Shown here piece by piece: positions 3,903 to 61,797 of a stretch of DNA of 64,000 nt. This DNA comes from Candidatus Woesearchaeota archaeon (GTDB lineage Archaea > Nanobdellota > Nanobdellia > SCGC-AAA011-G17 > JACPIM01). The notes beneath the pieces were generated by a model. That model made no database searches. It saw only the letters and a list, made by a program, of their open reading frames with translations, and was not told where the DNA came from. Made by a program: the position numbers and the translations under genes. The stretch's first letter is position 1, and each line of letters starts with the position of its first letter. The stretch lies in assembly GCA_964513145.1 (NCBI GenBank), contig CAZELK010000002.1, forward strand, positions 18,413 through 82,412. Reading direction: 5' to 3'.

Positions 3903-3918
3903 TAAAAAATTAAAGTTC

Positions 3919-3943
3919 TTCCGTTAATGCTTTTTCTAAAATG
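3919..3943. repeat. conserved ~25-nt motif immediately 3' of the CDC48 stop codon (copy 1)
   Basis: ttccgttaatgctttttctaaaatg. It shares a 16-nt identical core with 32522..32547. Both abut the stop codon of a minus-strand gene. Confidence 0.6.
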
Positions 3944-3944
3944 T

Positions 3945-9479
<5,535 letters not shown>

Positions 9480-15880: not shown

Positions 15881-15957
15881 ATTATCCTATTACTAAATTA
15901 CTATTTTTTGTAAAACTTCTTTTAGTCCTTGATTAAACTTTTTCTAAGGGTTTAAAA

Positions 15958-16076
15958 TGGGCCCGATCAGATTTGAACTGACGGCCGCTCGATTATCAGT
16001 CGAGTGCTCCAATTGTCCATACTTTTAGTTTTGCCAAAGCTTTTCCTAAAAGCTTTCCAGACTAAGCTACGGGCCC
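15958..16076 (-). tRNA. tRNA-Ile (anticodon GAU) with a ~45-nt insertion between D-loop/D-arm and anticodon stem
   Basis: Acceptor GGGCCCG/CGGGCCC; anticodon arm CTCGA-CTGATAA-TCGAG; T arm GTCAG-TTCAAAT-CTGAT. Gene is 119 nt versus about 74 mature. The insert contains the hairpin AAAGCTTTT-AGG-AAAAGCTTT. Confidence 0.7.
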
Positions 16077-24356: not shown

Positions 24357-27300
24357 CTAAATCTTGCTAATAAATCCAACTTTGGGCTGGAATATTTCTC
24401 CTTCCCTTTTCATTTTTTCAAGAACTTCATCTATAACACTTTCTTCCAAGCCTTTCTCCCTGCACACGCTGATTATATCGTTAACAGGAATAGTCTTAAT
24501 TCCATTTTTATCAAATTCATAAATAACTTCTCTTACTACAATTATTTTATTTCTTTGGCTTGTTGTAATTCCAGTAGCAAGAACATCAACATCAAGTTTT
24601 CCTGTTTGTGGGTCAATTCCAACTTGATATAAACATTTTTTCAAAATTCTGATTGCTCTTTTTGCATCGTCCTTTGTTATTTTATTGCTTAATCTTATTT
24701 TAGCAGAAGCCTCACTTAATCTTATCAAAGCTTCTAATTGTCTAGCACTAATTGGTATTGGTTTTACATCATCCTTACTGCTGCCAGAATTTCTAATACT
24801 AACATAAAAATTTCTAATTTCATCTTTTGCAACATCGCTCAATTTTGGAAAGACTTTATTTTTAGCATATGAAACATATTTTCTTAATAAACTTGGCTCT
24901 ATATCTGGTTCCATATTTCCTGTATTTCCATGAACATCTAAAATATGTGTAGCTATTTTAGCATCTAATTTTTCATCAGGTATATCTCTCATAGGAAAAA
25001 TTAAATCAAATCTATTAATCAAAGCAGGGGGTAAATTAATTTGTGCGGCAATTGGCTGATAAGGATCAAATCTTCCTAATTTTGGATTTGCAGCAGCTAA
25101 AGCGCTGACTCTTGTTAACAAAGTAGCTTGAATATTTGCTTTGCTAAAACTAATTTGCTGTTGTTCTAAACCTTCGTGCAAAGCGCTGGTATCATCTTCA
25201 TCCATTTTATCAAGTTCATCTAAAAAGATTGCTCCACCATTTGCTAAAGCCATTGCTCCGCCTTCCAAAGCCCATCCTTTTAAAAATTCATCTTTGACTA
25301 TTGCACCAGTCAATCCCGCAGCCGAAGCTGACTTACCAGAAACATATCTTGCTTTTGGTGCAACTTTAGACATATACATAAGTAAAGAAGAATTATGACA
25401 ATAAAAATTATTAGCAACAAAATTATGAACTTTATCAACAGTTAAATCATAAACAAATTCTTCTTCAGATTTTATTTTTTCTACAGATTGAATTTTATCC
25501 CAAAATATACTTGAGTAAGCTAAATAGTATAAACGAAGTATTCCTTGTTTCAAAGCAAAATCATTAACTATTCCTTTTATTAAACTTAAAAGAGATTCAT
25601 TAATATATGATTGTTGTACTGGCCTAATTTTTTCTAACTCATAATGTGAAATTAAAGTTTGGGAACAATTAACAGAATTCGCTAAAGTTGCTTGACTAGT
25701 GTATAGATCTTCTCTTAAGCTTTTTGAATCAAATTCTTGTTTTTTTAAAACTGAAATCAAATAAGAATATCGTTCACTTACAGCAGTTAAGATTTTTCTT
25801 AAAGAATTTCTCGAAGGATTTCTATCTCCTCTTTCAAAATGTTGGTAAGTGGTTCTAGGAATACCAAATTCAAACTGAGTTAATTTTAATTTTTTTCTTA
25901 CTGATTTAAGAATTTTAGGTAATCCAGGTATAACATCAATATTAGTATTATAAGTTTGATCAGGATTATTTATTGAATTAATCAATTTTCTTTGTTTTTC
26001 AGAAGAATTAAAACCTATCTTACTAGAATATTTTAAAACTTCTTTTCCAGATACAGTTAAAATCCAATAAGGTCTTTTTATTTTGGCTTTTGTATTAGTG
26101 GCACAGGCTATAGTTTTATGAGTTTGTGAAATAATATTAAACCTTAATAATAAAGTCTTTAAATCATAAATTAAATCCTTACTAGCAGAAGAAACTTTTA
26201 CCTCTCTTTTATCTTCCACAACAGTAGCTTCACCGTCAAAATAACTTTTTAAAAACTCTTTAACAATTGAGTTTGGAGATTTTTGAATTATTTTTGGTAC
26301 TTGTTTATGTTTAGCTCTCATAATTAAGCTAGGTTCTATTTTCTCAAAAAATCTTAAAAACTCAATTGATGAAACATCTAATTCAGAAGCAATTTTTCCT
26401 TTTCTAGGTTTTTTAAATCTAGGTTCAATATTAAAAATTTTTTTTACTAAGAAACTATAATCATCTAATAAAATTTTATCTTCATTAGTGAAAGCAGTTC
26501 GTCCAGTAGTTTCTTCATAATTCATATAAGTTTCTGAAGTTAAATATCCTAATAATCTTGCTAATTCAGGACTGCAAAATTTAGGAATTTTAATATGTGT
26601 ACCATTATGAGCTGAAGTTCTCTCTATATCAAAATCTATTTTTTGAAATTCTGTATTAAGTTTTAGATTTCTGGGGCTTGCAATAAAATCTCCTTTTTTT
26701 AATTCTTCACTTCTTTTAGAAAAAACAATTCCATTTTCAGTTAAAAACATCGGGTGTGTTGGAGAAACAGTAATCTCATTGCCAGTCTCAGTTATTATTT
26801 TATATAAAAATTCAGGAGCTTTTCTTTTCCAAACAGCATTGCATAAACCAGTATAATTTCTATAATCAAATCCTAAAGAAGATAAAGAAAAATTAGTTTT
26901 ATTAAAAACTCCATCATCACATTTCTCAAAATTATTTAAATTTTCATCAACTAAATATTTTATTTCTTTAATTGAACCATCTTTTAAAATAACTTTCGTA
27001 TCTCCTTTTACACACTTGGATGATCCTGGATCACCTACCAATAAAATATGTATATCTCCCCTGTTCCATGTGCCGTCTTTTCTTTCCTTCCTTACTCCAC
27101 CCATTAATTGCAATGATAAGGCTTCTTTAATATCAGCATGACCGTAAATTGATGGAGCAATACTTCCAATAAATTTATCATAAATTTTTGGATTCTTGCT
27201 TAAGGAAATAATTTTTTCTTCCTCTTCTTTGTCAATTATAAGCTCTTCAAAAGTTTCTTCAAGAGGTTCAATAAAATTAGAGTCCATCATCAAATCATAT

Positions 27301-28007
27301 TTTGTGCTTGCAGCTCCAGTTCTTAGTAAAATAGGAACTTCTTTTACAACTCCATTTACTCGTACTTTGCTTCCTGGGGTGGTTTTTCTTTCCATTATAG
27401 GCTCAACTAAATCTTCCTTTAAAAATATACTGAGTCTTTTTGGCTGTTCACCGCCTTGCAAACTATCAGGGCTTTCTTCAAGAACAAGTCTTTGTGCATC
27501 AACTAATTCTTTGCTCAATAATCTGAATCTCCCTTTTTTTCCACAAGTACATCTATAGGGTTCTTTAAATTTAGCATCTAATTGTAAAATAGAAATTGAA
27601 TTTCCACAACTAGGGCATTCAAACTTTGCGCTTGTAACTTGTGGTCTTACATCCGAAGCTTGTCTTACTATCCCTTCAATAATTAAAAATTGTCCTAAGT
27701 GTTCGCTTCTTACATCTTTAATTTTTATTTTTTGGTTTACAGGCAAATTAAAAAATCTAATTCTTAAATACCTGTCAATTTCAAAATTTTCTAATGATAA
27801 CTCAAAAGCCTTGATAGTTTCTTCAGGCTCATCCAATAATTGGTCAGCCAATTGGTGATCGTATTCTGCAAGCTTGGAGAAATCAATAAGTAAAAATTTT
27901 TTTCCAGTTAAAATAGCCTGGTTAATTTGATCTCTATAATTCTGATCTATAAAATCATTAAACTTCTCTACTTGCTCAATAACATCATTCACCAAATCTT
28001 CCCCCAA
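24357..28007 (-). CDS. mcm: MCM replicative helicase with an intein in the Walker A P-loop
   Basis: N-terminal Zn finger (CPSCG...CTCG) and AAA+ core. GDPGSSK-[intein]-SSLLMY..., arginine finger, C-terminal winged helix. Confidence 0.9.
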   Translation of the reverse strand: MGEDLVNDVIEQVEKFNDFIDQNYRDQINQAILTGKKFLLIDFSKLAEYDHQLADQLLDEPEETIKAFELSLENFEIDRYLRIRFFNLPVNQKIKIKDVRSEHLGQFLIIEGIVRQASDVRPQVTSAKFECPSCGNSISILQLDAKFKEPYRCTCGKKGRFRLLSKELVDAQRLVLEESPDSLQGGEQPKRLSIFLKEDLVEPIMERKTTPGSKVRVNGVVKEVPILLRTGAASTKYDLMMDSNFIEPLEETFEELIIDKEEEEKIISLSKNPKIYDKFIGSIAPSIYGHADIKEALSLQLMGGVRKERKDGTWNRGDIHILLVGDPGSSKCVKGDTKVILKDGSIKEIKYLVDENLNNFEKCDDGVFNKTNFSLSSLGFDYRNYTGLCNAVWKRKAPEFLYKIITETGNEITVSPTHPMFLTENGIVFSKRSEELKKGDFIASPRNLKLNTEFQKIDFDIERTSAHNGTHIKIPKFCSPELARLLGYLTSETYMNYEETTGRTAFTNEDKILLDDYSFLVKKIFNIEPRFKKPRKGKIASELDVSSIEFLRFFEKIEPSLIMRAKHKQVPKIIQKSPNSIVKEFLKSYFDGEATVVEDKREVKVSSASKDLIYDLKTLLLRFNIISQTHKTIACATNTKAKIKRPYWILTVSGKEVLKYSSKIGFNSSEKQRKLINSINNPDQTYNTNIDVIPGLPKILKSVRKKLKLTQFEFGIPRTTYQHFERGDRNPSRNSLRKILTAVSERYSYLISVLKKQEFDSKSLREDLYTSQATLANSVNCSQTLISHYELEKIRPVQQSYINESLLSLIKGIVNDFALKQGILRLYYLAYSSIFWDKIQSVEKIKSEEEFVYDLTVDKVHNFVANNFYCHNSSLLMYMSKVAPKARYVSGKSASAAGLTGAIVKDEFLKGWALEGGAMALANGGAIFLDELDKMDEDDTSALHEGLEQQQISFSKANIQATLLTRVSALAAANPKLGRFDPYQPIAAQINLPPALINRFDLIFPMRDIPDEKLDAKIATHILDVHGNTGNMEPDIEPSLLRKYVSYAKNKVFPKLSDVAKDEIRNFYVSIRNSGSSKDDVKPIPISARQLEALIRLSEASAKIRLSNKITKDDAKRAIRILKKCLYQVGIDPQTGKLDVDVLATGITTSQRNKIIVVREVIYEFDKNGIKTIPVNDIISVCREKGLEESVIDEVLEKMKREGEIFQPKVGFISKI
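25392..27014 (-). mobile_element. MCM P-loop intein (aa 332-872, 541 aa) with HTH and LAGLIDADG homing endonuclease
   Basis: Starts CVKGDTKVIL and ends NNFYCHN, followed by SSLL. Contains LARLLGYLTSETY (LAGLIDADG) and an HTH (LKLTQFEFGIPRTTYQHFERG). Confidence 0.8.
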
Positions 28008-31687: not shown

Positions 31688-31811
31688 TGGGCCCGGAGTG
31701 ATTTGAACACCCGACATATACGGCTTCAGCGTATTGCTCTCCTTAGCCACTCTTCTTAGTTTTTTTGATTAAACTTTTTTCTAAAAAGTTTACAGGCTGA
31801 GCTACGGGCCC
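31688..31811 (-). tRNA. tRNA-Phe (anticodon GAA) with a ~50-nt intron in the D-loop
   Basis: Acceptor GGGCCCG/CGGGCCC; anticodon arm ATACG-CTGAAGC-CGTAT (G37 present); T arm GGGTG-TTCAAAT-CACTC. The D-arm GCTC-AGCCTG[insert]GGA-GAGC is interrupted. The insert carries the hairpin AAACTTTTT-AGA-AAAAAGTTT. Confidence 0.7.
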
Positions 31812-32432: not shown

Positions 32433-32521
32433 TCTAAAGGTATTCCCTGTAGTATAATCAATTTTAGTTCTCCATGATAGCTTTTTTAAGATTATTATTT
32501 AATTAATTTTTTAGTGAAGTT

Positions 32522-32547
32522 TTCCGTTAATGCTTTTCGCAAAATGG
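32522..32547. repeat. conserved ~25-nt motif immediately 3' of a minus-strand stop codon (copy 2)
   Basis: ttccgttaatgcttttcgcaaaatgg. A 16-nt identical core is shared with 3919..3943, in the same position relative to the stop codon. Confidence 0.6.
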
Positions 32548-32549
32548 TT

Positions 32550-33587
32550 CTATTTCGTCAATACTCGTTTAGTTCTAAATTTACTTTTAGGTCTGGAATT
32601 CAGCATTTTATCTTGTTCTTTTATTTTAACAAAATTCCACTTCCAAACATCTTCGTCCCTTACAAAAATTATAACCCTGCTTATTTTATCTTTTAATTTG
32701 GGAATATAACCTGTTTTATCCCCTATAACTTTTCCATACTCCTCTATATCTTTCATTGTAGGCATGTTACTTAGTTTGAGTCTTTTTTTACTTTCTCCTA
32801 GCCAGGAATACCCTTTTAATTGCACAAATTTTGGTTTGTAAATATTAATTAAATCAGAAAATTCAGAGGCATTATGATCATTCAAACCTTTTGTAATTGT
32901 AGTTCTCATTATAGTTCTTGAGTGTTTAAATTCTTTCATTAAACTTAAACTTTCTTTAACTTTTTCAAAAGCATTTGGAATCATGGAATTTGTAATTTTT
33001 TTATAATCTTCTTCATTCGTAGCATAAACACTAATGCTTAAATTATTCGGTTCAGCATCTTTGTCCAACATTTCTTTAATTCTGTTTGGCATTGTTCCAT
33101 TTGTAACAATAAAAACAGTCATCTTTCTATTTTTTATTTCTTTAATTAAATCTGCAATTTTTGGATAAAGTGTTGGTTCTCCGTCTAATGAAATTGCAAC
33201 ATGATGTGGATCCATTGCCTGAGCAAAATTTTCTTTAGTAACTATTCCGCCAAAACCAGATAATAAATTTCTTTGTGCACCAATTATTCCATCAACAATT
33301 TCTTCAGGCTCATCCCATTTATTTTCTGACTTAAATCTGTCTTTGCCAAATTTACGCCAACAAAATGTGCAGGAAAAATCACAAAAATCCATTGAGCTGG
33401 TCATTTGGACACAGCGGTGAGATTTAATACCGTAAATAGATTTGTAACAGTTATGGTCATTTTTAATTTTAGATTTAGTCCAGCGACATAACTGAACAGC
33501 AGTATGTTTATTCTTGCCTACAAATCTATATCCTGCTTTCTCATACTTTTTCTGTTCGTCGTTCGATAATTTTACAAATTCTTGCAT
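32550..33587 (-). CDS. taw1: radical SAM tRNA 4-demethylwyosine synthase (TYW1/Taw1)
   Basis: CDFSCTFC (Cx3Cx2C) radical SAM motif and a second N-terminal Cys cluster; the length and layout of archaeal Taw1. Adjacent to tRNA-Phe. Confidence 0.7.
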   Translation of the reverse strand: MQEFVKLSNDEQKKYEKAGYRFVGKNKHTAVQLCRWTKSKIKNDHNCYKSIYGIKSHRCVQMTSSMDFCDFSCTFCWRKFGKDRFKSENKWDEPEEIVDGIIGAQRNLLSGFGGIVTKENFAQAMDPHHVAISLDGEPTLYPKIADLIKEIKNRKMTVFIVTNGTMPNRIKEMLDKDAEPNNLSISVYATNEEDYKKITNSMIPNAFEKVKESLSLMKEFKHSRTIMRTTITKGLNDHNASEFSDLINIYKPKFVQLKGYSWLGESKKRLKLSNMPTMKDIEEYGKVIGDKTGYIPKLKDKISRVIIFVRDEDVWKWNFVKIKEQDKMLNSRPKSKFRTKRVLTK

Positions 33588-34423: not shown

Positions 34424-35947
34424 ATGTCATTTATAATGGAAAATTATGATGCTATATTTGTATTCCCTAAGTTATGGGAAAAAGAATTTAATCCACCTAA
34501 TCAGCCGCCTTATGGTTTGTTAATGTGCTCTGACTTATTATTAAAAAAAGGATACAATGTTTTAGTTTATGATGAAAGATTGGAAAGCCTGGGTGTAAAA
34601 AGCAGGTCAGAATTAGTTCAGGCTGTAAAGCACAGCAAGCCTTTATTTTTTGGAATATCTTCGCAATCAGGTCCAATGATTGAAAATGGTCTGTTAAATT
34701 CAAAATTCTTTAAACATGAATGTCCAGATACTCCTGTAGTCTGGGGTGGTGTTCATCCAACATTATTGCCAGACCAGACAATCAAACATCCATTAATTGA
34801 TGCTGTAATAAAAGGAGAAGGAGAACTGCCTTGTTTGGGATTGGCTGAAAATTTAAAAAAAGGAAATAAAGATTTTTCAAAAATTGATGGTTTATATTGG
34901 AAAGACAAAAATAAAAATATTAAAATAAATAAGCCTTGCCCAGGTGTTCCAGATTTAGATGAAATTAACATGAGGTGGGATTTAGTAAATCCGCAGCATT
35001 ATATAAGAGACATTGATGGAAAGAAATGGTTAGGGGTTATCACAAGCAGAGGATGTCCTTTTAGATGTGGTTTTTGTTATAACATATCTTTCTTTGGAAT
35101 GAGAAAATTCCGTGGATGGAGTCCTAAAAAATCCATAGAAGAAATAAAAAAAGTTTTGGAATGGGGTGTTGATTTTATTAATTTTGATGATGATTATATT
35201 TTCGGCGACCCACTAAGAATGTGGGGTATTTTAGATTTAAAAAAACAAGAAAATTTAAACTTCGAATGGAAAGCCCCGATAAGAGGCCATCTATTAAGAG
35301 ATGCATTAACAAAAAGACTCAAAGATGGTGGCTGTGCAAGTGTAACAATTGGTGCAGAAAGTGGAAGTGAAAAAGTTTTAGATTATATGACAAAAGATTC
35401 TGGTCCAGACGCTTATTATATGGCTGCCAAGAATTTAAAAAGATACGATATTCAGGGGAATTTCAGTTGGATTTTAGGTTATCCCGGTGAAACACTAAAA
35501 GATGTTTACATAACTCTAAATGTAATTAAAGACTTGGAAGAAATAAATCCAGACACAGAGCATGTTATTAACATTTATGCACCTTATCCAGGCACGCCTA
35601 GTTTTGATCAGGCTATAGAACGTGGATTCGTGCCTCCACCATCATTAGAAGGATGGACTGATAATTTCCGTGAAGCTTGCAAAGAATTGTCATACATTGA
35701 TGAAAAAAATAAAAAAATAATGGAAGCAATACGATGGGCTGGTATTTTCAGGACAATGTACAAAAGAAAGAGATTATATGCAAGCTGGATTAGACCTATT
35801 GTAAATGTTTTGGGGACTATTTCTAATGTAAGATGGAACCATAATCTATATAGCCTGCCAATAGAGCAAAAATCAGTAATTCTGGGAAGAGAAGTTTTAA
35901 AAAGAATGACAAGAAAGAAAAACGAAGAAATTGAAAACTTCTGTTAG
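34424..35947 (+). CDS. B12-binding domain radical SAM protein (class B rSAM)
   Basis: N-terminal cobalamin-binding-like domain, then SRGCPFRCGFC Cx3Cx2C; 507 aa. Confidence 0.8.
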   Translation: MSFIMENYDAIFVFPKLWEKEFNPPNQPPYGLLMCSDLLLKKGYNVLVYDERLESLGVKSRSELVQAVKHSKPLFFGISSQSGPMIENGLLNSKFFKHECPDTPVVWGGVHPTLLPDQTIKHPLIDAVIKGEGELPCLGLAENLKKGNKDFSKIDGLYWKDKNKNIKINKPCPGVPDLDEINMRWDLVNPQHYIRDIDGKKWLGVITSRGCPFRCGFCYNISFFGMRKFRGWSPKKSIEEIKKVLEWGVDFINFDDDYIFGDPLRMWGILDLKKQENLNFEWKAPIRGHLLRDALTKRLKDGGCASVTIGAESGSEKVLDYMTKDSGPDAYYMAAKNLKRYDIQGNFSWILGYPGETLKDVYITLNVIKDLEEINPDTEHVINIYAPYPGTPSFDQAIERGFVPPPSLEGWTDNFREACKELSYIDEKNKKIMEAIRWAGIFRTMYKRKRLYASWIRPIVNVLGTISNVRWNHNLYSLPIEQKSVILGREVLKRMTRKKNEEIENFC

Positions 35948-35988
35948 AAACTTTTTTTAAAAGTTTCATCAAAAGCGAGATGTAGATT

Positions 35989-36294: not shown

Positions 36295-36365
36295 AATAGA
36301 AGATTTAAATATTAGAATAGAAGATTTAAATATTAGAATAGAAGATTTAAATATTAGAATAGATA
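36295..36365. repeat. 21-nt tandem repeat (aatagaagatttaaatattag) x3.3, coding for IEDLNIR heptads in one frame
   Basis: Three exact units plus a diverged partial unit. Confidence 0.9.
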
Positions 36366-41682: not shown

Positions 41683-44292
41683 ATGGACTTAAAAACAAAA
41701 CAAAAATTAAAGAAATTTATAGCAAACTTGTCAATAGTCAGGGGAAGGCATACTGAGTTGGTTTCTGTTTATGTTCCAGCTGGATACGATTTAAATAAAA
41801 TTATTAATCATTTGCAGCAGGAGCAGGGAACAGCATCCAACATAAAAGATGCAAGAACAAGGGCAAATGTAACAGATAGTCTGGAAAGAATGATCAAGCA
41901 CCTAAGATTATTTAAAAGAACTCCTGAAAACGGCTTGGCTGTATTTGCCGGTGATATTTCTCAGGCAGAAAATAAAATTGATATTCAAGTTTTTAGTATT
42001 GAACCGCCAGAGCCATTAAAAGTAAAAATTTACAGGTGCGATCAGACATTTTATTTAGATTTAATTAAAGACATGATGGAGCATAAAGAAGTTTACGGTC
42101 TTATAACTATGGACAAAAGAGAATGCAGCATTGGTTATTTACAAGGCACTTACATAAAATTAGCACATAATTTAACATCTGGTGTTCCTGGGAAAATGCG
42201 TGCCGGAGGGCAGTGCTTATTACCAGACACACTAATACAATCTGCGGAAGGCGATATTTTTGAAATTGAAAAAAGTCACAATCCTCATGTTTTAGTTGGC
42301 TGTGAAATAGATAAATTATCAGCTAAGAATACGCCAATCACAGATAAATGGAATACTAAAAAAAATACAATTTACAAAATAATAACAAAATATCCAAGAA
42401 TAGAATTAGAATGTTCAAAAGATCACGTATTTTTTGTGAGAGAAGATAAATTAGTTGAAAAAGCAGCTGAAGAACTTAAAGAAGGCGATTTTTTAATAAT
42501 GCCTGAACAAATTAATATTAAAGGTAAAGAAATCCACTTTAATCCAATAAAATATTATAATATACTTTATTTAACAAAAGAAGGTAGAGATTTAATTAAG
42601 AATTTAAGAGAAGAAAAGAAACTATATCAAAAGCAATTAGCAAAAGAAATAGGTGTAACTCAAACAGCAATTTCAATAATCGAATTAGGCAAAGAAGGAA
42701 TAAGAGCTAATTTCTTGCAAAGATTATGTCAAAAATTACAGATTAATTTTGAGGAATTTATAAATAATTATACTTCTCATAAATCAACTATAAAACTTCC
42801 AGAGAGATTAGATGAGAAACTTGCACAAATTACTGGATATTTTTTAGGTGATGGAAACTATGAAGAAGAAAGAATCTGTTTTTCAGAAGAAAGAAAAGAC
42901 GTTGCAGAATATTATAGTAATTTATTAAAAAATTACTTTCGTGCAAAGGTCAGTTTAAAATATAGAGAGAAAAAGCATTATTGGTTAATAAGAGCCAACG
43001 GAAAACCAATAGTGAGATTTTTAAAAAATGAATTTCCAGAATTAAGAAATAATGATATAAATACAATTCCAAAGAAAATACTTGAATCAGATAATAAAAT
43101 AGTTGCTGCTTTTTTAAATGGTCTTTTTGACGCCGAAGGGTATCCAAGTTCTTCTCGATCAGTCAGCCTTGGGATGAATAATAAAAGATTAATTCAACAA
43201 CTACAAATGCTTTTGTTAAGATTTAGCATAATTTCCTCATTTATTGAAAATGATAATAAACATAATCCTTATACTAAAAATCATTGTTTTATTGTAGATA
43301 TTACAGAAAAAGAGTCAATAAAATTATTCAAGGAGAATATCGGTTTTACAGCTATAGGAAAATGTAAAAATCTAAATGAAATAATAAACCTAAGAAAAAA
43401 CAAAAAAGAATTAAGTAGAGTAAGAAGAATTTTGATGTCTGGGAAAAAAGTTCGAGAGATTATAGAAGAGTTCGGTTATAATATAGAATTATTCCCTAAA
43501 GTTTCAGGATTTTTTATTGATAAAAGAATGATAAGCAAAAAAGTGTTCTATAAATCAATTTTAAAAGAAGTAGAAAATAAAGATAAAAAATTATATAATA
43601 AATTATTTGAAATTTACAAAGCGAATATTCTCCCAGTTAAAATTAAATCAATAGAAGTAACAAATAAATCAGTAAAAATGGTTGATATCTCAACGCAACA
43701 AGGTAATTTTATAGCAAATTGTTTAATAGTCCATAACTCTGCAAATCGTTTCGCAAGATTAAGGGAAGAAGCTGCTAAAGAATTTTATAACAGAATAAGT
43801 GAAATTGTAAATAAAGAATTTTTGGGCAGACAAGAAATAAAAGGAATTATAATAGGTGGTCCAGGCCATACAAAGGAAGAGTTGCTAGAGTATCTAAATA
43901 ATGAAATCAGGAAAAAAGTAATTGGCACTAAGGATATTACTTACACAGATGAATCTGGTCTTCATGATTTAGTTGAAAAATCTCAAGATATTTTAGCAAA
44001 TGAAATTGTTATGCAGGAAAAGGCATTGATGGCTCGATTCTTCGATACCTTAGGAAAAACTCCAAATAAAATTGTTTATGGTATAAACGAAGTTAGACAT
44101 GCCCTGGAATTATCTGCAGTCGACATAGTTCTTGCTAGTGAAGATTTAGATGATAAAACAATCGAGGAATTAGAAGAATCATGTATAAAAAGTGGCTGTA
44201 AGCTTCAGATAATATCTGTTGATACAAGGGAAGGAAAACAATTGAAAGATCTTGGTAGTGTTGGGGCTATTTTAAGATATGAGATTCAATAA
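41683..44292 (+). CDS. prf1: peptide chain release factor aRF1 (eRF1 homolog) interrupted by an intein right after the GGQ motif
   Basis: NIKD/NIKS-like motif (ASNIKD) and GKMRAGGQ. The extein resumes SANRFARLREEAAKEF. Domain 3 is intact. Confidence 0.9.
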   Translation: MDLKTKQKLKKFIANLSIVRGRHTELVSVYVPAGYDLNKIINHLQQEQGTASNIKDARTRANVTDSLERMIKHLRLFKRTPENGLAVFAGDISQAENKIDIQVFSIEPPEPLKVKIYRCDQTFYLDLIKDMMEHKEVYGLITMDKRECSIGYLQGTYIKLAHNLTSGVPGKMRAGGQCLLPDTLIQSAEGDIFEIEKSHNPHVLVGCEIDKLSAKNTPITDKWNTKKNTIYKIITKYPRIELECSKDHVFFVREDKLVEKAAEELKEGDFLIMPEQINIKGKEIHFNPIKYYNILYLTKEGRDLIKNLREEKKLYQKQLAKEIGVTQTAISIIELGKEGIRANFLQRLCQKLQINFEEFINNYTSHKSTIKLPERLDEKLAQITGYFLGDGNYEEERICFSEERKDVAEYYSNLLKNYFRAKVSLKYREKKHYWLIRANGKPIVRFLKNEFPELRNNDINTIPKKILESDNKIVAAFLNGLFDAEGYPSSSRSVSLGMNNKRLIQQLQMLLLRFSIISSFIENDNKHNPYTKNHCFIVDITEKESIKLFKENIGFTAIGKCKNLNEIINLRKNKKELSRVRRILMSGKKVREIIEEFGYNIELFPKVSGFFIDKRMISKKVFYKSILKEVENKDKKLYNKLFEIYKANILPVKIKSIEVTNKSVKMVDISTQQGNFIANCLIVHNSANRFARLREEAAKEFYNRISEIVNKEFLGRQEIKGIIIGGPGHTKEELLEYLNNEIRKKVIGTKDITYTDESGLHDLVEKSQDILANEIVMQEKALMARFFDTLGKTPNKIVYGINEVRHALELSAVDIVLASEDLDDKTIEELEESCIKSGCKLQIISVDTREGKQLKDLGSVGAILRYEIQ
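42214..43737 (+). mobile_element. aRF1 intein (aa 178-685, 508 aa) with HTH and LAGLIDADG homing endonuclease
   Basis: Starts CLLPDTLIQ and ends CLIVHN, followed by SANRF. LAGLIDADG motifs (LAQITGYFLGDGNYEE, AAFLNGLFDAEGYPS) and an HTH (LYQKQLAKEIGVTQTAISIIELGKEG). Confidence 0.8.
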
Positions 44293-54833: not shown

Positions 54834-54982
54834 ATCTCCAAAAAAATTATTTTCTTATTTAAATATTATTATAAAACAAAATAGAAATAAATATGTAACC
54901 AATTAAAGACAAAAGTTTCCTAAAAATAATAATTTAATTTTCTCAAAAAGCTACCAGTTTTGCTTAAGCTTTTTTTGAAAGC

Positions 54983-56884
54983 TTATCTTAATCGAATAGC
55001 TTCTAAATTCTTGGGAGATAATGTTTCTAGTTTAGTTAATTTATGCAAAGTAGAAGCTAATTCAAGACATTTTGAACTTTCACCATGACACATAACAAGC
55101 TTTTTTGGTCTTGGTTCCAAATTATTTACAAAATTAATTAATTGTGTTCTGTTGCTGTGCCCTGAAAATCCATGGATAACATGAACATCCATTTTAACTT
55201 CTAAAACTTCTTGTTTATTGCCATTCATAAAAGTAATCTGTCTTTCTCCATCTTCAAGCCTTCTGCCTATAGACCCTGGTCCTTGATAACAAGTCATTAC
55301 TATTGAATTTTTTGCATTGTCTGCTAGCATTTTGAAATATTCTAAAGACGCGCCGCCAGTCAACATTCCTGAAGTTGCTAAAATAACACATGGTCCTTTT
55401 TCTTCTACAACTTCCTGCATTTCTTTTCTTGACCCTACTCTTATAAACATATCAGATAAAAATGGATTTTGATCCTTGTGATAAATTAATTTTCTCACTT
55501 TGGAATTAAAAAAATCTGGATATGCTGTATGTATAGCAGTAATGTCCCAAACCAAACCCTGAACATACACTGGTATTTTTGGTAAAGTTCCTTCTCTAAC
55601 TAGTTTGTCTAAAATAACCATAATTTCTTGTGATCTTCCAGAACCTAAAACAGGAACTAAAACCTTTCCATTTCTTTCTAAAGTTTTTTTGATTATGTCA
55701 GTAAAAAATAATTCACATTCTCTTCTTGTTGGTGGCGTATCATTTTTCCCACCATAAGTAGCTTCCATTATGACAGTTTCTAGTCTTGGAAACCTTGTGT
55801 TTGCTGCTGAAAGCAAGTTGGAATTTTCATACAAAAAGTCGCCTGTATAGGCCAGGTTGTGTAAACCGTTGCCAATATGCAAATGACAAATAGCGCTTCC
55901 TAATTTGTGTCCAGCATCATAAAAAGTTAATCTGACATCTGGAGTAATATCGCTAACTTCTCCATAGTCTAAACATATTGTATGCATCACCATTTCTTTT
56001 ATATCTGAGGAAGAATAAATTGCCTTGTTTGCTTCTTTTTGTGCAATACTTATTAAATCCAAACATAGTAATGCAGCTATGTCTCTTGTTGGCATAGTCA
56101 TAAAAGATGGTCCTTTAAATCCCATTTTATATAAGTAAGGTAAAAAAGCAACATGGTCGACATGCGAATGGGAAATTATTACAGCATCAAGTTCCTCTAT
56201 TTTAAATTCAGGTGCTTCAAGTAATGGAAACATTTCTTCATTTGATTGTGCAGCAACATTTATTCCACAATCAAGTAATATTTTTGATTCCGGGGTTTGT
56301 AAAAATAAGCAGCTTCTTCCAACTTGTCTTCCTGCACCTAAAAAAGTTACTCTGACCCATTCGTCTACTCTTCCTTTTGTCCATCCGCCGTAAATTCTTT
56401 TTCCAACTTTGTTCAAGAATTTTTTCCTGTATTCAGAATTTTCAAATAAAGCATAATTAATAGTTTCAATTAATTTTGATCTTATTGGGGGTGTTCTTCT
56501 GACAATAGGTATCCAAAAAGTTTGTTTTCTTATCTCTCTTAGTACTTCCCCTTGTTTTCCTATAGCAATTCCAGGTTTTTCAACTTCTAAAGTGACTAAA
56601 GATCTTTGATTATCAAATAATAAATTTACTTCGCCAGCGTCTTTTGGTATTATTTCTTTTATTGTTTTTTCAGCTTTTTCAATATCCATTGTAATAGCAG
56701 GGTCTGGTCTTAATTCAACTCTTTTTTTTATAGTGTCAACTATAGTTTTTATAGTACCATTATTGTTCAAGAAAAAATCCTTGTCTTTTGTGTACAAAAC
56801 TATGTTTGCTCCTTCAAAACAAGAATCACTAATCTTAGAGCTATCTGGTATCAGCTTCATTATTTCTTCTAATATGTCTGGCAT
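54983..56884 (-). CDS. aCPSF1 (beta-CASP/metallo-beta-lactamase RNase with N-terminal KH domains)
   Basis: Two KH domains, HSHVDHV MBL motif, beta-CASP; 633 aa. Confidence 0.9.
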   Translation of the reverse strand: MPDILEEIMKLIPDSSKISDSCFEGANIVLYTKDKDFFLNNNGTIKTIVDTIKKRVELRPDPAITMDIEKAEKTIKEIIPKDAGEVNLLFDNQRSLVTLEVEKPGIAIGKQGEVLREIRKQTFWIPIVRRTPPIRSKLIETINYALFENSEYRKKFLNKVGKRIYGGWTKGRVDEWVRVTFLGAGRQVGRSCLFLQTPESKILLDCGINVAAQSNEEMFPLLEAPEFKIEELDAVIISHSHVDHVAFLPYLYKMGFKGPSFMTMPTRDIAALLCLDLISIAQKEANKAIYSSSDIKEMVMHTICLDYGEVSDITPDVRLTFYDAGHKLGSAICHLHIGNGLHNLAYTGDFLYENSNLLSAANTRFPRLETVIMEATYGGKNDTPPTRRECELFFTDIIKKTLERNGKVLVPVLGSGRSQEIMVILDKLVREGTLPKIPVYVQGLVWDITAIHTAYPDFFNSKVRKLIYHKDQNPFLSDMFIRVGSRKEMQEVVEEKGPCVILATSGMLTGGASLEYFKMLADNAKNSIVMTCYQGPGSIGRRLEDGERQITFMNGNKQEVLEVKMDVHVIHGFSGHSNRTQLINFVNNLEPRPKKLVMCHGESSKCLELASTLHKLTKLETLSPKNLEAIRLR

Positions 56885-57723: not shown

Positions 57724-57942
57724 TTATTCTATAAATTTAAATCTTGGAACTCTTTTGCTGTCTACAATTACATCTTCAAAAAACATTTTTTTAGGCCTAA
57801 TCCATATTGAATCTTTTCCATATTCCTTGCTGTCATGTTTGTAAATAACAAATTCTTCTAAAGTCTCGCTGTGTCTTCCTAAGCCAATAACATCACAAAT
57901 AATGCCTTTATAATGCAGATATTTTCCTTTTTTTATTTCCAT
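57724..57942 (-). CDS. DUF1653-like small protein
   Basis: YLHYKGIICDVIGLGRHSETLEEFVIYK...IWIRP pattern. Confidence 0.45.
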   Translation of the reverse strand: MEIKKGKYLHYKGIICDVIGLGRHSETLEEFVIYKHDSKEYGKDSIWIRPKKMFFEDVIVDSKRVPRFKFIE

Positions 57943-59108
57943 AATTTAATTTCTTTTACCCTTTCTTTTATATAATTATTTCTGGATATTTTTTTAAAAT
58001 AATCTTCAACTTTAGTAAATTCTCTTTTAATATTTGTATAGCAAGTCCCATTTTTAATAAAAACCTTTTTGTGTTTCTTTTTAAATTCCCTGACATTATT
58101 AACCATATTTTCTGGAGGTCCTTTATGTAAATAATATTCACCTATTTTTTTCTCCCTTAAAAAAAACCAAAAAATAACTTCATCTCCCCAAAACCAATTA
58201 TTGTCCTTGATTATAAAACCATTTTTAGTCAGTTCATTTTTTATAAAGTCAATTGTCTTGACAATCTTGTCTCCTATTAGGTCCTTTTTGCCTGGTAAGG
58301 GGATAATTTTTATAACCAAAGCACCAGAAGGAATTTTATTTTCTTTAAAGAAAAATCTTTCAGAAGGTTCTCGCAAATATAATTGTGATAATTTTACAAA
58401 TTTATTAAAATTATCTAAAGACAATGAAGCAGCAATATTTCTATTTTTGTCTACAGGATCAATTAATATCAAAGGTGAAACTGTTTTTGATGGATTAAGT
58501 TCAAATAACGGATTTTTTAATTTTTTATTTATATCAATAATTACCTTTGGTTTCCATTTTGCAGCATTTTTTAAAACATTTTTAAAAGATTTGTAGTAAA
58601 TAGTTAAAACTTCTAAAGCGTAACCAGAAAAACCTGAAATATATGACTCAGCCCCATATAATGAATTTGCCTTGCAAAAAGCCTTTAATAATCTAATTTC
58701 ATCCTTTAATTTGGAAAACTTTTTAACAAATTTAATATGCAAAGGGCTTAAATCAGTTACATTTTGGGCTTGTTCAGGTTTTTTAATGTCCAGAATTGGA
58801 ACAATTTCAAAAATTAAATTCCTGTAATTAATATGAAAATAATCCCTAGAACCATGCACTATATCCACATCAAACTTTTTTTTAAGCTGCTTATATAAAA
58901 TATCAGAAATATTTTTATCATAATTTTTAAATTTTGCAAAAATATCAACTTCTTTTGTTGCTTTTAGCCACGTATCTTTTGAAACTGACCCGCCAACTAT
59001 AAAGTTTACTTTTTTAATATAACTTAATTTTTTAAGAAATTCTTTCGTAATATTTTCAACTAATAATTGTTCATCTTTAGACGGCTTTATCTGAGAAATT
59101 ACATTCAT
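57933..59108 (-). CDS. cca: CCA-adding tRNA nucleotidyltransferase (archaeal class I)
   Basis: Block-by-block similarity to A. fulgidus CCA enzyme: VGGSVSKDTWLKATKEVDIF, IRLLKAFCKANSLYGAESYISGFSGYALEVL, DPVDKNRNIAASLSLDNF. Confidence 0.85.
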   Translation of the reverse strand: MNVISQIKPSKDEQLLVENITKEFLKKLSYIKKVNFIVGGSVSKDTWLKATKEVDIFAKFKNYDKNISDILYKQLKKKFDVDIVHGSRDYFHINYRNLIFEIVPILDIKKPEQAQNVTDLSPLHIKFVKKFSKLKDEIRLLKAFCKANSLYGAESYISGFSGYALEVLTIYYKSFKNVLKNAAKWKPKVIIDINKKLKNPLFELNPSKTVSPLILIDPVDKNRNIAASLSLDNFNKFVKLSQLYLREPSERFFFKENKIPSGALVIKIIPLPGKKDLIGDKIVKTIDFIKNELTKNGFIIKDNNWFWGDEVIFWFFLREKKIGEYYLHKGPPENMVNNVREFKKKHKKVFIKNGTCYTNIKREFTKVEDYFKKISRNNYIKERVKEIKLWK

Positions 59109-60998: not shown

Positions 60999-61156
60999 TG
61001 CGCTGGCCGAGGTTTGAAATCCCGAAACTTCTTTTAGTCTTTGATTAAACTTTTTTGAAAAGTTTGCTCGGGTCAGAGCCTCTTTACTCGCTTTTGATTA
61101 AACTTTTTCAAAAGTTTATTGGCAAGGCCCAATACTAACCACTATACTACCAGCGC
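60999..61156 (-). tRNA. tRNA-Gly (anticodon GCC) with two introns: a canonical 37/38 intron (38 nt) and a T-arm intron (48 nt)
   Basis: Acceptor GCGCTGG/CCAGCGC. Anticodon arm GGGCC-TTGCCAA-[38 nt]-GGCTC. T arm CCGAG-[48 nt]-TTCAAAC-CTCGG. 158 nt total versus 72 mature. Both inserts carry the AAACTTTT-N3-AAAAAGTTTAATCAAA element. Confidence 0.6.
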
Positions 61157-61272
61157 ATCAGTAATCTTTTGTAAAACAATTATATTTAAACCTTTTTAGT
61201 CATGAGGCTTTGTTGTGGAGTCCTAAATTTATTTAGAAAGATATTTAATACAATAAAATCTAATTTATTCGT

Positions 61273-61662
61273 ATGATTTTAACAGGGATCATTGCTGGAC
61301 TCGGCTTATTAGTGTCTTTTTATGCCTTTAGAACAGAATTAAAAGTAAAGCTTAATAAAAAATACAAGGCATTTTGTGATAGAAATAATCGCATTTCCTG
61401 TTCAAAAACACTCTCAAGCAAATACGGAAATCTTTTTGGAATCCCAAATTCCTTGGCTGGAATTTTTTTCTACGCCTCTCTTCTTGTTCTTGCTTTTTTA
61501 AATATAACTAATTATATTTTTTATCTATCAATAATTGCTTTTTTAATTAGTATCTTGCTTGCATATCTATCATTTTTTAAAGTAAAAACAATATGTCCTG
61601 TTTGTATTTCGATTTATATAATAAATACAACTTTATTGATTGTATCTTATCCAAAAATATGA
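61273..61662 (+). CDS. VKOR-family-like membrane protein (second paralog)
   Basis: Loop Cys pair (FCDRNNRISC) and TM CxxC (ICPVCISI). Confidence 0.5.
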   Translation: MILTGIIAGLGLLVSFYAFRTELKVKLNKKYKAFCDRNNRISCSKTLSSKYGNLFGIPNSLAGIFFYASLLVLAFLNITNYIFYLSIIAFLISILLAYLSFFKVKTICPVCISIYIINTTLLIVSYPKI

Positions 61663-61663
61663 A

Positions 61664-61797
61664 TGGGCCGAGAAGGATTTTCATTGCTTCTAGTTTTGTT
61701 TAAGCTTTTCTAAAAGCTTAATTTGAACCTTCGATCTAGACGGTGTAAACGTCTTGTCATTTGCAGAGTTAAAACTTAGCCACTAGACCACCGGCCC
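61664..61797 (-). tRNA. tRNA-Val (anticodon UAC) with two insertions: 17 nt in the D-stem and 44 nt at the T-loop/T-stem junction
   Basis: Acceptor GGGCCGG/TCGGCCC. D arm GTCT-AGTGGCTA-AG[17 nt]AC. Anticodon arm AGACG-TTTACAC-CGTCT. T arm GAAGG-TTCAAAT-[44 nt]-CCTTC. The 44-nt insert carries AAGCTTTT-AGA-AAAGCTT. Confidence 0.55.

Follow-up and report, generated by a model that had tools for sequence, protein, structure and literature searches.

The four tRNA genes in a 64-kb stretch of archaeal contig CAZELK010000002.1 (the whole stretch is called the window here) are interrupted by six inserts which, judged from their sequences, are introns of the bulge-helix-bulge (BHB) type that the splicing endonuclease would remove. 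Five of these predicted introns share a hairpin-and-tail module that appears to belong to a dispersed repeat family and is not specific to tRNA genes. The explanation that we favour, and hold to be probable, is that copies of this repeat have been inserted or copied into tRNA genes, where they create introns or overwrite existing ones. Introns built from a hairpin repeat give a hint of the way in which tRNA introns of archaea originate and move.

Interrupted tRNA genes and their splice junctions

Acceptor, D, anticodon and T arms are recognisable in all four genes, where they are broken by extra sequence (Table 1). ARAGORN called zero tRNAs across the window, and its intron options gave either nothing or, once thresholds were lowered, spurious calls. 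Rfam searches returned partial tRNA matches only (32 bits for tRNA-Phe and 24.5 bits for tRNA-Ile), and a scan for GC-rich islands revealed no more structured-RNA candidates outside open reading frames (ORFs). Removal of the inserts in silico yields canonical tRNAs. ARAGORN then calls all 18 of the 18 spliced sequences, taken from the window and its relatives, with the expected anticodons. An earlier note on this DNA had proposed that intact cloverleaves exist only after insertions of 17-50 nt are removed, and the behaviour of ARAGORN before and after splicing bears this out. The intact, intron-less genes that predictors might have reported according to the same note did not appear, as ARAGORN found no intact tRNA in the window. 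Its count of seven inserts is reduced to six; the extra full copy of the module sits in the 3' trailer of tRNA-Ile, outside the gene.

The failure of standard finders on all four genes could also mean that a repeat has struck pseudogenes in decay or artefacts of assembly, with functional copies elsewhere in the genome. A single gene for each isoacceptor is the usual complement of a reduced archaeal genome, which counts against this idea. In addition, the exons are intact and near-identical to orthologs at syntenic positions in at least five independent assemblies, every junction has a BHB with compensatory changes, and an independent Logan assembly (L006) has sequence identical to the window. 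We consider this the least probable account of the data.

Splice junctions were sought in each gene by a scan for four nucleotides of exon 1 that pair with four of the intron, where both strands continue into a 3-nt bulge whose cut follows the second nucleotide. Exactly one BHB solution per insert also gives a canonical tRNA. The last four nucleotides of exon 1 ahead of the first bulge would pair with four nucleotides near the intron 3' end to form a central 4-bp helix (H), with the second 3-nt bulge on the other strand and a tRNA stem serving as the outer helix. EndA would cut both bulges behind their second nucleotide, and an RtcB-type RNA ligase would presumably join the exons. This 3-4-3 core occurs in 22 of 22 introns examined by script, six from the window and 16 in orthologous or related tRNAs of other contigs, with four of four H pairs in each case. 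The length of the outer helix ranges from 2 to 7 bp in this set. Two more introns, both in tRNA-Asn of the unrelated metagenome contig L005, match the geometry by eye.

The introns differ in how the elements around H are assembled. Gly intron 1 uses the 5-bp anticodon stem as its outer helix and consists of the hairpin AAACTTTT/AAAAGTTT and the tail AATCAAAAGCGA, followed by GTAA AG^ at the 3' cut. Val intron 2 has the 5-bp T-stem as its outer helix and carries the hairpin AAGCTTTT/AAAAGCTT plus tail. In Gly intron 2, the 5' arm can pair alternatively with the tail end (AGAAGTTT) over 8 contiguous bp, yielding a full hBHBh' structure in which H is flanked by outer and inner helices. Val intron 1 lies outside the hairpin family.

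Table 1. Positions of tRNA genes, introns, module copies and associated features. Coordinates are those of the window unless a locus is named. H gives the exon and intron strands of the central helix; ^ marks the predicted cut.
Feature	Position	Strand	Description
tRNA-Gly(GCC)	60999..61156	-	two introns; spliced product is tRNA-Gly(gcc) by ARAGORN
Gly intron 1	61119..61082	-	38 nt; canonical 37/38; H = TTGC/GTAA; bulges CA^A and AG^A
Gly intron 2	61066..61019	-	48 nt; 53/54 (T-stem/T-loop junction); H = CCCG/CGGG; bulges AG^C and AT^T; hairpin and tail module
tRNA-Val(UAC)	61664..61797	-	two introns; spliced product is tRNA-Val(tac) by ARAGORN
Val intron 1	61777..61761	-	17 nt; D-loop 20a/21, linear 20/21 (GGCT^A...AA^ATGACA); H = GTGG/CTGC
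Val intron 2	61721..61678	-	44 nt; T-loop 59/60; H = TTCA/TGAA; bulges AA^T and AA^T
tRNA-Ile(GAU)	15958..16076	-	one intron; spliced product is tRNA-Ile(gat) by ARAGORN
Ile intron	16056..16013	-	44 nt; D-loop 19/20; AAGC-type hairpin and tail; H = GTCT/GGAC; bulges GG^A and AA^T
tRNA-Phe(GAA)	31688..31811	-	one intron; spliced product is tRNA-Phe(gaa) by ARAGORN
Phe intron	31792..31743	-	50 nt; D-loop 18/19; hairpin and tail module; H = AGCC/GGCT
Full module copy, 5' arm degenerate	15916..15954	-	tRNA-Ile 3' trailer; one mismatch to Gly intron 2 tail; 86% identity over 42 nt; no BHB candidate
Extragenic module copy	35945..35979	+	begins with TAG stop of B12/radical-SAM gene; nhmmer E = 0.0065; no significant BHB
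Extragenic module copy, AAGC type	54951..54985	-	its TAA is the aCPSF1 stop; 83% identical to Val intron 2
Diverged after-stop hairpin (...AAAAGCATTAACGGAAGAAC)	3910..3947	-	behind CDC48; possible distant family member
Diverged after-stop hairpin	32513..32552	-	behind TYW1; partner of 3910..3947
CCA-adding enzyme and wyosine-pathway genes	57933-59108, 203-820, 32550-33587	-, +, -	
Example viral loci	L040:3871-4039, L072:2896-4229, L081:7770-7857		core matches

Relatives of the window were used for comparison. Syntenic contigs of relatives whose proteins are 72-80% identical to those of the window carry the tRNA-Val/Gly locus (five close relatives, L008, L010, L012, L015 and L017) or the tRNA-Phe locus (L018, L019 and L020). 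A more distant, AR20-like relative (L022) has an RsmB protein that is 53% identical. Orthologs of tRNA-Gly were found in L022 and in all five close relatives. A metagenome scan with the full module returned one true relative, on contig L005.

The small Val intron 1 had been assigned to the D-stem in the earlier note. This site is filled in the window and all five close relatives by inserts of 14-18 nt whose sequence varies. The intron strand of H reads CCAC, CCAC, CCAT, CCAC and CTAT in the relatives and CTGC in the window. All of these pair with the invariant exon sequence GTGG, which places the intron in the D-loop instead. Splicing there leaves U13.U22 in the mature tRNA. More generally, covariation of H is one-sided, with an invariant exon strand and an intron strand that changes between Watson-Crick and wobble pairing. 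The exon sequence TTGC at Gly 37/38, for example, faces either GTAA or GCAA.

On this evidence, the earlier description of the inserts as intron-like holds at every junction, each having a BHB and a canonical spliced product. The non-canonical locations that it gave for Phe and Ile (D-loop) and for Gly and Val (T region), as well as the canonical Gly site, can now be fixed at 18/19, 19/20, 53/54, 59/60 and 37/38, respectively. Its suggestion that the endonuclease has relaxed requirements survives only in part. Positions are non-canonical and flanking helices are weak or alternative, but a strict 3-4-3 core is present everywhere.

None of the four genes (0/4) encodes CCA, and a gene for a CCA-adding enzyme is present. 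The window also carries the wyosine-pathway gene TYW1, located about 0.7 kb from tRNA-Phe, together with a Trm5/TYW2-type methyltransferase gene.

A module common to introns and gene ends

Five of the six introns in the window contain a perfect 8-9-bp hairpin that starts 1-3 nt past the 5' cut. The hairpin has either the AAACTTTT/AAAAGTTT or the AAGCTTTT/AAAAGCTT sequence, and is followed by an A-rich tail of the form AATCAAA(G)ACTAAAAGAAG or AAACAAAACTAGAAG. Each module intron then ends in a 6-10-nt exon-specific segment that holds the 3' strand of H and its bulge. The common design noted earlier for six of seven inserts is real, although it extends to five of six. We infer that the inner helix (h') of the BHB is provided by the hairpin or by an alternative pairing. 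As a ready-made inner helix, the conserved hairpin would occupy a fixed place beside the 5' cut, as it is observed to do, and the exon-specific segment would create the central helix. The alternative involves the end of the tail (AAAAG/AAGAAG), which can pair with the 5' arm in place of the proximal 3' arm. This pairing is used in the minimum free energy (MFE) folds for Ile, for Val and for Gly intron 1.

Recurrence of the module far exceeds chance expectation. The 26-mer AAAGTTTAATCAAAGACTAAAAGAAG occurs twice at three or fewer mismatches (0 expected), and the degenerate core AAAGYTTHDNCAAR occurs ten times (0.89 expected). Copies were sought with nhmmer and with a scan combining a regular expression and a hairpin requirement; MAFFT misaligned the 5' arms. 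The core together with its hairpin is present in 34 copies in the 172 kb formed by the window and its relatives, compared to 0.1 in shuffled sequences, and none of these is convincingly inside coding sequence. The third base pair of the hairpin is A-T in 18 copies, G-C in six and a G.T intermediate in one, with introns and extragenic copies behaving alike. Such a compensatory switch argues for selection on a folded single strand.

No known RNA family in Rfam matches the module, C/D-box and K-turn motifs were not seen in it by eye, and no CRISPR or tandem array lies at or near the tRNA loci. A scan of genome contigs for the full module gave only a chance match in a bacterial metagenome-assembled genome. 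A role as an oligo-T terminator was considered and rejected, as the T-run is just 3-5 nt long and lies within the 5' arm.

Outside tRNA genes, the copies are 82-86% identical to introns and tend to begin where a gene ends. The copy behind the B12/radical-SAM gene shares 82% identity with Gly intron 1, and the tail CAAAAGCGAG is part of this match. About ten copies in relatives start between -2 and +1 nt from the stop codons of genes such as those for aIF5B, S6e, a proteasome subunit, RpoD and aCPSF1, and one or two copies lie in the trailers of tRNA-Val in relatives. Relatives differ in whether a copy is present at the sites behind aCPSF1, the proteasome subunit, aIF5B and S6e, and the C-termini of the proteins are unchanged. 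The aCPSF1 site, for instance, is filled in L010 and L012 and is empty in L008, where the protein has the same C-terminus. These properties indicate that the module belongs to a dispersed repeat family. The earlier note had raised the prospect of a genome-wide repeat unrelated to tRNAs. A dispersed repeat it appears to be, but the same repeat also forms the bodies of tRNA introns.

The extragenic copies are evidently not introns themselves, because they show no BHB above the expectation from shuffled sequences. One coincidental CATT/AATG match was found, and its use would delete the S6e start codon. The possibility that after-stop copies are mRNA introns was rejected for the same lack of BHB motifs and because aCPSF1 ends at the same residue where the site is empty. 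The copies that sit directly past stop codons and tRNA 3' ends probably act as 3'-end hairpins.

The location of modules at gene ends is also relevant to a different interpretation, in which the tRNA genes are split in cis. The module would then terminate the upstream exon, its sequence AAAAAG-TTTAATCA would provide a transcription factor B recognition element (BRE) and TATA box for the downstream exon, and the parts would be trans-spliced at the BHB as in Nanoarchaeum equitans. The 3' arm and tail do resemble the archaeal BRE-TATA consensus. Three introns (Gly 53/54, Phe and L005 Ile) have the sequence TTTAAT 31 nt upstream of their 3' exon, and split tRNAs are known in Nanoarchaeota (PMC4033280). 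However, the spacing in the remaining introns is 21-27 nt, and the variant found in Ile, CTTTGGCA, does not look like a TATA box. Of about 12 extragenic copies, only two have a downstream start at the distance expected of a leaderless promoter, and several point towards a convergent gene. The T-run of 3-5 nt in the 5' arm and the absence of the long complementary leader and trailer helices of known split tRNAs further reduce the standing of this interpretation, which we judge to be very improbable. Use of the module as a promoter in general was likewise rejected, given inconsistent distances to downstream starts and copies that face convergent genes.

Several other repeat features are worth recording. 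Tandem pairs of modules occur in one intergenic spacer (L019:6199-6267, minus strand) and in a tRNA-Val 3' trailer (L010:7820-7900, plus strand). An exact 16-mer, AAAAGCATTAACGGAA, is common to the hairpins that follow CDC48 and TYW1 (at 32522..32537 for TYW1); two matches to it were found and 0.19 were expected. This 16-mer was not found in the 20 loci L001-L020. The two hairpins may have branched off from the module family and diverged. At 36295-36363, the spacer that lies downstream of both the radical-SAM gene and the module copy behind it holds a perfect tandem repeat of the 21-nt unit AATAGAAGATTTAAATATTAG (3.3 copies, 100% identity).

A further subfamily has the form AACCTTTTT-loop-AAAAAGCTT-aaccaaaaa and always includes one C.C mismatch (L008:19429, L010:5336, L012:6056, L012:18019, L012:18460 and L017:13312). 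Five of these six copies lie antisense, 2-3 nt upstream of the ATG of an adjacent minus-strand gene, mostly one for a ribosomal protein. On the strand of the gene, they read AAAAAGGTT ahead of the start codon, possibly a Shine-Dalgarno sequence enclosed in a hairpin.

Intron turnover and its alternatives

Intron sites are occupied differently even in closely related genomes, among which RsmB identity is 77-79%. The Gly 37/38 intron is found in five of the six close genomes and is lost in L017. The Val 59/60 intron is present only in the window and is missing in L008, L010, L012, L015, L017 and L022. Similarly, only the window carries the Gly 53/54 intron, which is missing in all five close relatives and L022. 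Conversely, a Gly 22/23 intron (H = GGTT with GACT or GACC) occurs only in L008 and L010, as hairpin introns of 42-45 nt, and in L017, as a 12-nt remnant. The Phe 18/19 intron is retained in four of four genomes (the window, L018, L019 and L020) with the same H (AGCC/GGCT), and the intron bodies diverge. In L022, tRNA-Val is intron-less, and the 37/38 intron of tRNA-Gly shares 82% identity with that of the window. Contig L005 carries the module in tRNA-Ile(GAU) at 37/38, compared to 19/20 in the window. Presence and absence differences at orthologous tRNA-Gly and tRNA-Val genes are thus confirmed between related genomes, with L022 included. Since relatives carry the module at other sites (Gly 22/23, Ile 37/38) or are without it, introns appear to have been gained, lost or replaced among them.

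Some additional tRNA genes in the relatives are of interest. The 12-nt mini-intron of L017 (AAAAATGACTAA; tRNA-Gly at L017:7213-7296) keeps the tail end and the 3' strand of H, and its hairpin is gone. It looks like a deletion derivative that should remain spliceable. A third tRNA in L022 (10909-10995, minus strand) has an insert of about 12-13 nt in its anticodon region. The tRNA-Asn(GUU) gene of L005 (1120-1340, minus strand) adjoins tRNA-Ile(GAU) and carries the module at 37/38 and an intron with a different hairpin at 59/60 (H = TTCG/CGAG).

Similarity between introns does not follow the tRNA genes that harbour them. Introns at Gly 37/38, Gly 53/54, Phe 18/19, Ile 19/20 and Val 59/60, together with those at Ile 37/38 of L005 and Gly 37/38 of L010, are 78-91% identical to each other. 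The Val 59/60 intron of the window reaches 91% identity with the L010 intron at Gly 37/38. Gly intron 2 (53/54) is 90% identical to the Ile intron of L005, whereas the Ile exons are 73% identical. At Gly 37/38, the window has a module of the AAAC/GCGAG type, as do L022 and the 22/23 intron of L010, while L008, L010 and L012 have the AAGC type at 37/38. The subtype of module at one site therefore appears incongruent with host relatedness.

Differing occupancy between close relatives, incongruent subtypes and cross-site similarity that exceeds orthologous similarity are the evidence for turnover. Under the favoured explanation, a module copy that enters a tRNA gene where a BHB can be completed would become a new intron or overwrite an old one. 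Insertion or copying of the module would account for both the site occupancy and the subtypes seen among relatives.

A number of observations weigh against this explanation or against its parts. Unconstrained MFE folding recovers H, with both bulges, only for the Ile and Phe introns. For the other introns in the window, the MFE structures prefer alternative pairings of the AT-rich intron and give H no positive support; it is not unusual for 4-bp helices to be absent from such folds. When the module hairpin is formed, a tail of 12-22 nt interrupts the strand opposite the 5' bulge, so there is no textbook hBHBh' structure. The inner helix is either the module hairpin, with this tail opposite the bulge, or a helix between the 5' arm and the end of the tail, which is contiguous in Gly 53/54 only. 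Neither EndA nor RtcB was detected in the 64-kb window by tblastn with a Methanocaldococcus jannaschii EndA sequence and Pfam searches of about 60 ORFs. The same Pfam searches revealed no transposase in the window, and only an unrelated DDE_3 fragment was encountered in L015. Comparison of filled and empty sites revealed no target-site duplication longer than 1 nt, and no terminal inverted repeats were found for the module. Finally, the Gly 37/38 intron is kept down to the lineage with 53% RsmB identity, where it is as conserved as the exons.

A further opposing observation concerns viruses. Exact matches to the core AAACTTTT N2-5 AAAAGTTTAATCAA are present in 79 IMG/VR loci, compared to 9 and 0 for two controls with permuted tails. 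The viral contigs that bear this core (L023-L103) are AT-rich and many of them are bins of giant viruses. Two annotated loci among them (L040 and L072) encode major capsid proteins of nucleocytoplasmic large DNA viruses (NCLDV). All but one of the 90 distinct core matches are intergenic. About 20 fall within 5 nt of a stop codon, and some form tandem arrays of two to five. The viral loci share no proteins with the archaeal loci except for one weak topoisomerase IA match. Misbinned DPANN DNA was considered as a source of these contigs and rejected on the basis of this lack of homology and the NCLDV capsid genes at two loci. The extended archaeal tail (ACTAA..GAAG) was not found in the viral contigs. 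Occurrence of the core in viruses lowers confidence that all of the similarity stems from mobility, and part of it could reflect a selected signal. The diagnosis of the inserts as introns is unaffected.

These data lend substance to an account in which the BHB introns are real, but the hairpin and tail are a functional signal, such as a hairpin for 3'-end formation or termination or a site bound by a protein, and not a mobile repeat. Selection would maintain or recreate the module at any place where the signal is of use, its similarity would be a product of constraint or convergence, and differences between sites would be due to ordinary loss. The abundance of the viral core between genes and after stop codons fits this account, as do the deep conservation of the Gly 37/38 intron and the preservation of the hairpin by compensatory change. 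It has difficulty, however, with the extended tail, which is common to archaeal introns and extragenic copies even though viral contigs do not have it. Nor does it readily explain orthologous sites that are filled or empty among close relatives, or a Gly 37/38 intron in the window that resembles the one in distant L022 and is unlike those of closer relatives. There is also no obvious use for a 3'-end signal within a tRNA precursor. We consider a purely functional origin of the similarity unlikely.

Insertion or copying of the module into tRNA genes, the explanation preferred here, can be extended in a more speculative direction. The module might be a portable 'intron seed', that is, a dispersed gene-end hairpin whose core is found also in giant viruses of eukaryotes and which, once copied into a tRNA gene, would bring its own inner helix beside the 5' cut and need an exon match of only 4-6 nt to become a BHB intron. 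We put this forward tentatively. If true, it would for the first time provide a concrete source and a mechanism for the gain of archaeal tRNA introns, which reviews call unknown.

Relationship to known systems and genomic context

Sequence-related introns at many tRNA positions, with several per gene, have been described in Thermoproteales, where introns were gained after speciation by a mechanism that two reviews call unknown (PMC4033280, PMC4090602). The transposed introns of Thermoproteales (Fujishima et al. 2010, via PMC4033280 and PMC4090602) are similar to those described here in that multiple introns occur per tRNA, non-canonical sites include 20/21, 22/23, 53/54 and 59/60, and highly similar introns reside in different isoacceptors at different positions. 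The earlier note had recognised this signature, and the intron identities, presence/absence patterns and position shifts reported above agree with it. The host is different, being a Woesearchaeota-like DPANN archaeon and not a crenarchaeon, and the (alpha-beta)2 EndA with a crenarchaeal loop is a feature of Thermoproteales. The introns in the window are also modular, consisting of hairpin, tail and exon-specific end, and their module occurs at gene 3' ends as well. No mention of extragenic copies of Thermoproteales introns was found in the two reviews (PMC4033280, PMC4090602). The system in the window appears to work like the Thermoproteales case without being part of it, and would represent a second, independent lineage with this type of signature.

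Marked disruption of tRNA genes has been reported from multiple DPANN lineages with an alpha4 EndA that carries an L3 loop (Kaneta et al. 2018, PMC5829648), and representatives of Woesearchaeota and Pacearchaeota are among the DPANN members for which that paper predicted tRNA genes. ARMAN-2 has a broad-specificity epsilon2 EndA (PMC3239211). Many disrupted tRNA genes and incomplete predicted tRNA sets in DPANN are reported to be associated with one or the other of these enzymes (PMC5829648, PMC3239211). The statement that such a signature is unexpected in a reduced archaeal genome therefore does not stand, as heavy disruption in DPANN had already been reported (PMC5829648). The likeness to the window extends to ultrasmall archaea, non-canonical and multiple introns, and tRNA sets that standard predictors cannot complete. 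Unlike the present analysis, those papers (PMC3239211, PMC5829648) deal with enzyme types and intron statistics and include no intron sequence family or link to an intergenic repeat. That ARAGORN, a standard finder, misses all four tRNA genes in the window helps to explain the incomplete sets reported for DPANN genomes. Missed tRNA genes also bias estimates of genome completeness and of translational coding capacity.

The split tRNAs of Nanoarchaeum equitans (PMC4033280) resemble the genes in the window in having a DPANN host and BHB-dependent joining of tRNA parts. The exons studied here are, in contrast, contiguous, with 12-57 nt between them. Pairing is confined to the 4-bp H and the tRNA stems, with no long leader and trailer helices.

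Two other types of short hairpin invite comparison. Bacterial repetitive extragenic palindromic (REP) sequences and small repeats resembling miniature inverted-repeat transposable elements (MITEs) are short palindromic hairpins that are dispersed, mostly past stop codons, in either orientation and sometimes in tandem, and are polymorphic. The module shares with them its dispersal, an intergenic location far above chance and insertion polymorphism at orthologous sites. It differs in that the searches described above revealed neither terminal inverted repeats nor a target-site duplication nor a cognate transposase for it. To our knowledge, REPs have not been described as spliced introns. In Mimiviridae, a 'hairpin rule' places hairpin-forming palindromes at the 3' ends of transcripts (PMC4402537). 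Like the module, these hairpins are AT-rich and lie directly past stop codons, and the module core itself is found in NCLDV-type contigs. We know of no sequence consensus defined for the hairpin rule. The viral hairpins differ in belonging to viruses of eukaryotic hosts, in having no link to tRNA introns, and in lacking the extended archaeal tail, which was not found in the viral contigs.

A literature search returned no paper that ties Woesearchaeota tRNA introns to a repeat family, and a search with the motif string gave nothing relevant. Related introns at many tRNA positions were already known. What is new is the lineage, the modular anatomy, and an intron body that is the same as a dispersed gene-end hairpin repeat. 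The combination of a portable hairpin, a linker and a short exon-specific match, with near-identical extragenic copies that are polymorphic among relatives, makes the origin of archaeal BHB introns testable.

The gene content of the window is consistent with the host assignment used here. The best matches of neighbouring proteins (RsmB-like and CysRS) bear the source names Candidatus Woesearchaeota or Nanoarchaeota archaeon. Archaeal housekeeping genes in the window encode TBP, MCM, topoisomerase VI, aIF2-beta, aIF1A, aRF1, aCPSF1, PCNA and the CCA-adding enzyme. The sequence has a GC content of about 28% and appears to derive from a DPANN archaeon of the Woesearchaeota/Nanoarchaeota type.

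Inteins are a second kind of intervening element in this region. CDC48 (whose intein-splicing domain is in three stretches), MCM and aRF1 carry inteins in the window (3945-9479, minus strand; 24357-28007, minus strand; 41683-44292, plus strand). The MCM intein is missing in L019 and L020. An aCPSF1 intein is present in L010 (14863-18309) and L012 (13682-17128) and is absent from the window and L008. Inteins thus also appear to be polymorphic in the clade to which the window belongs.

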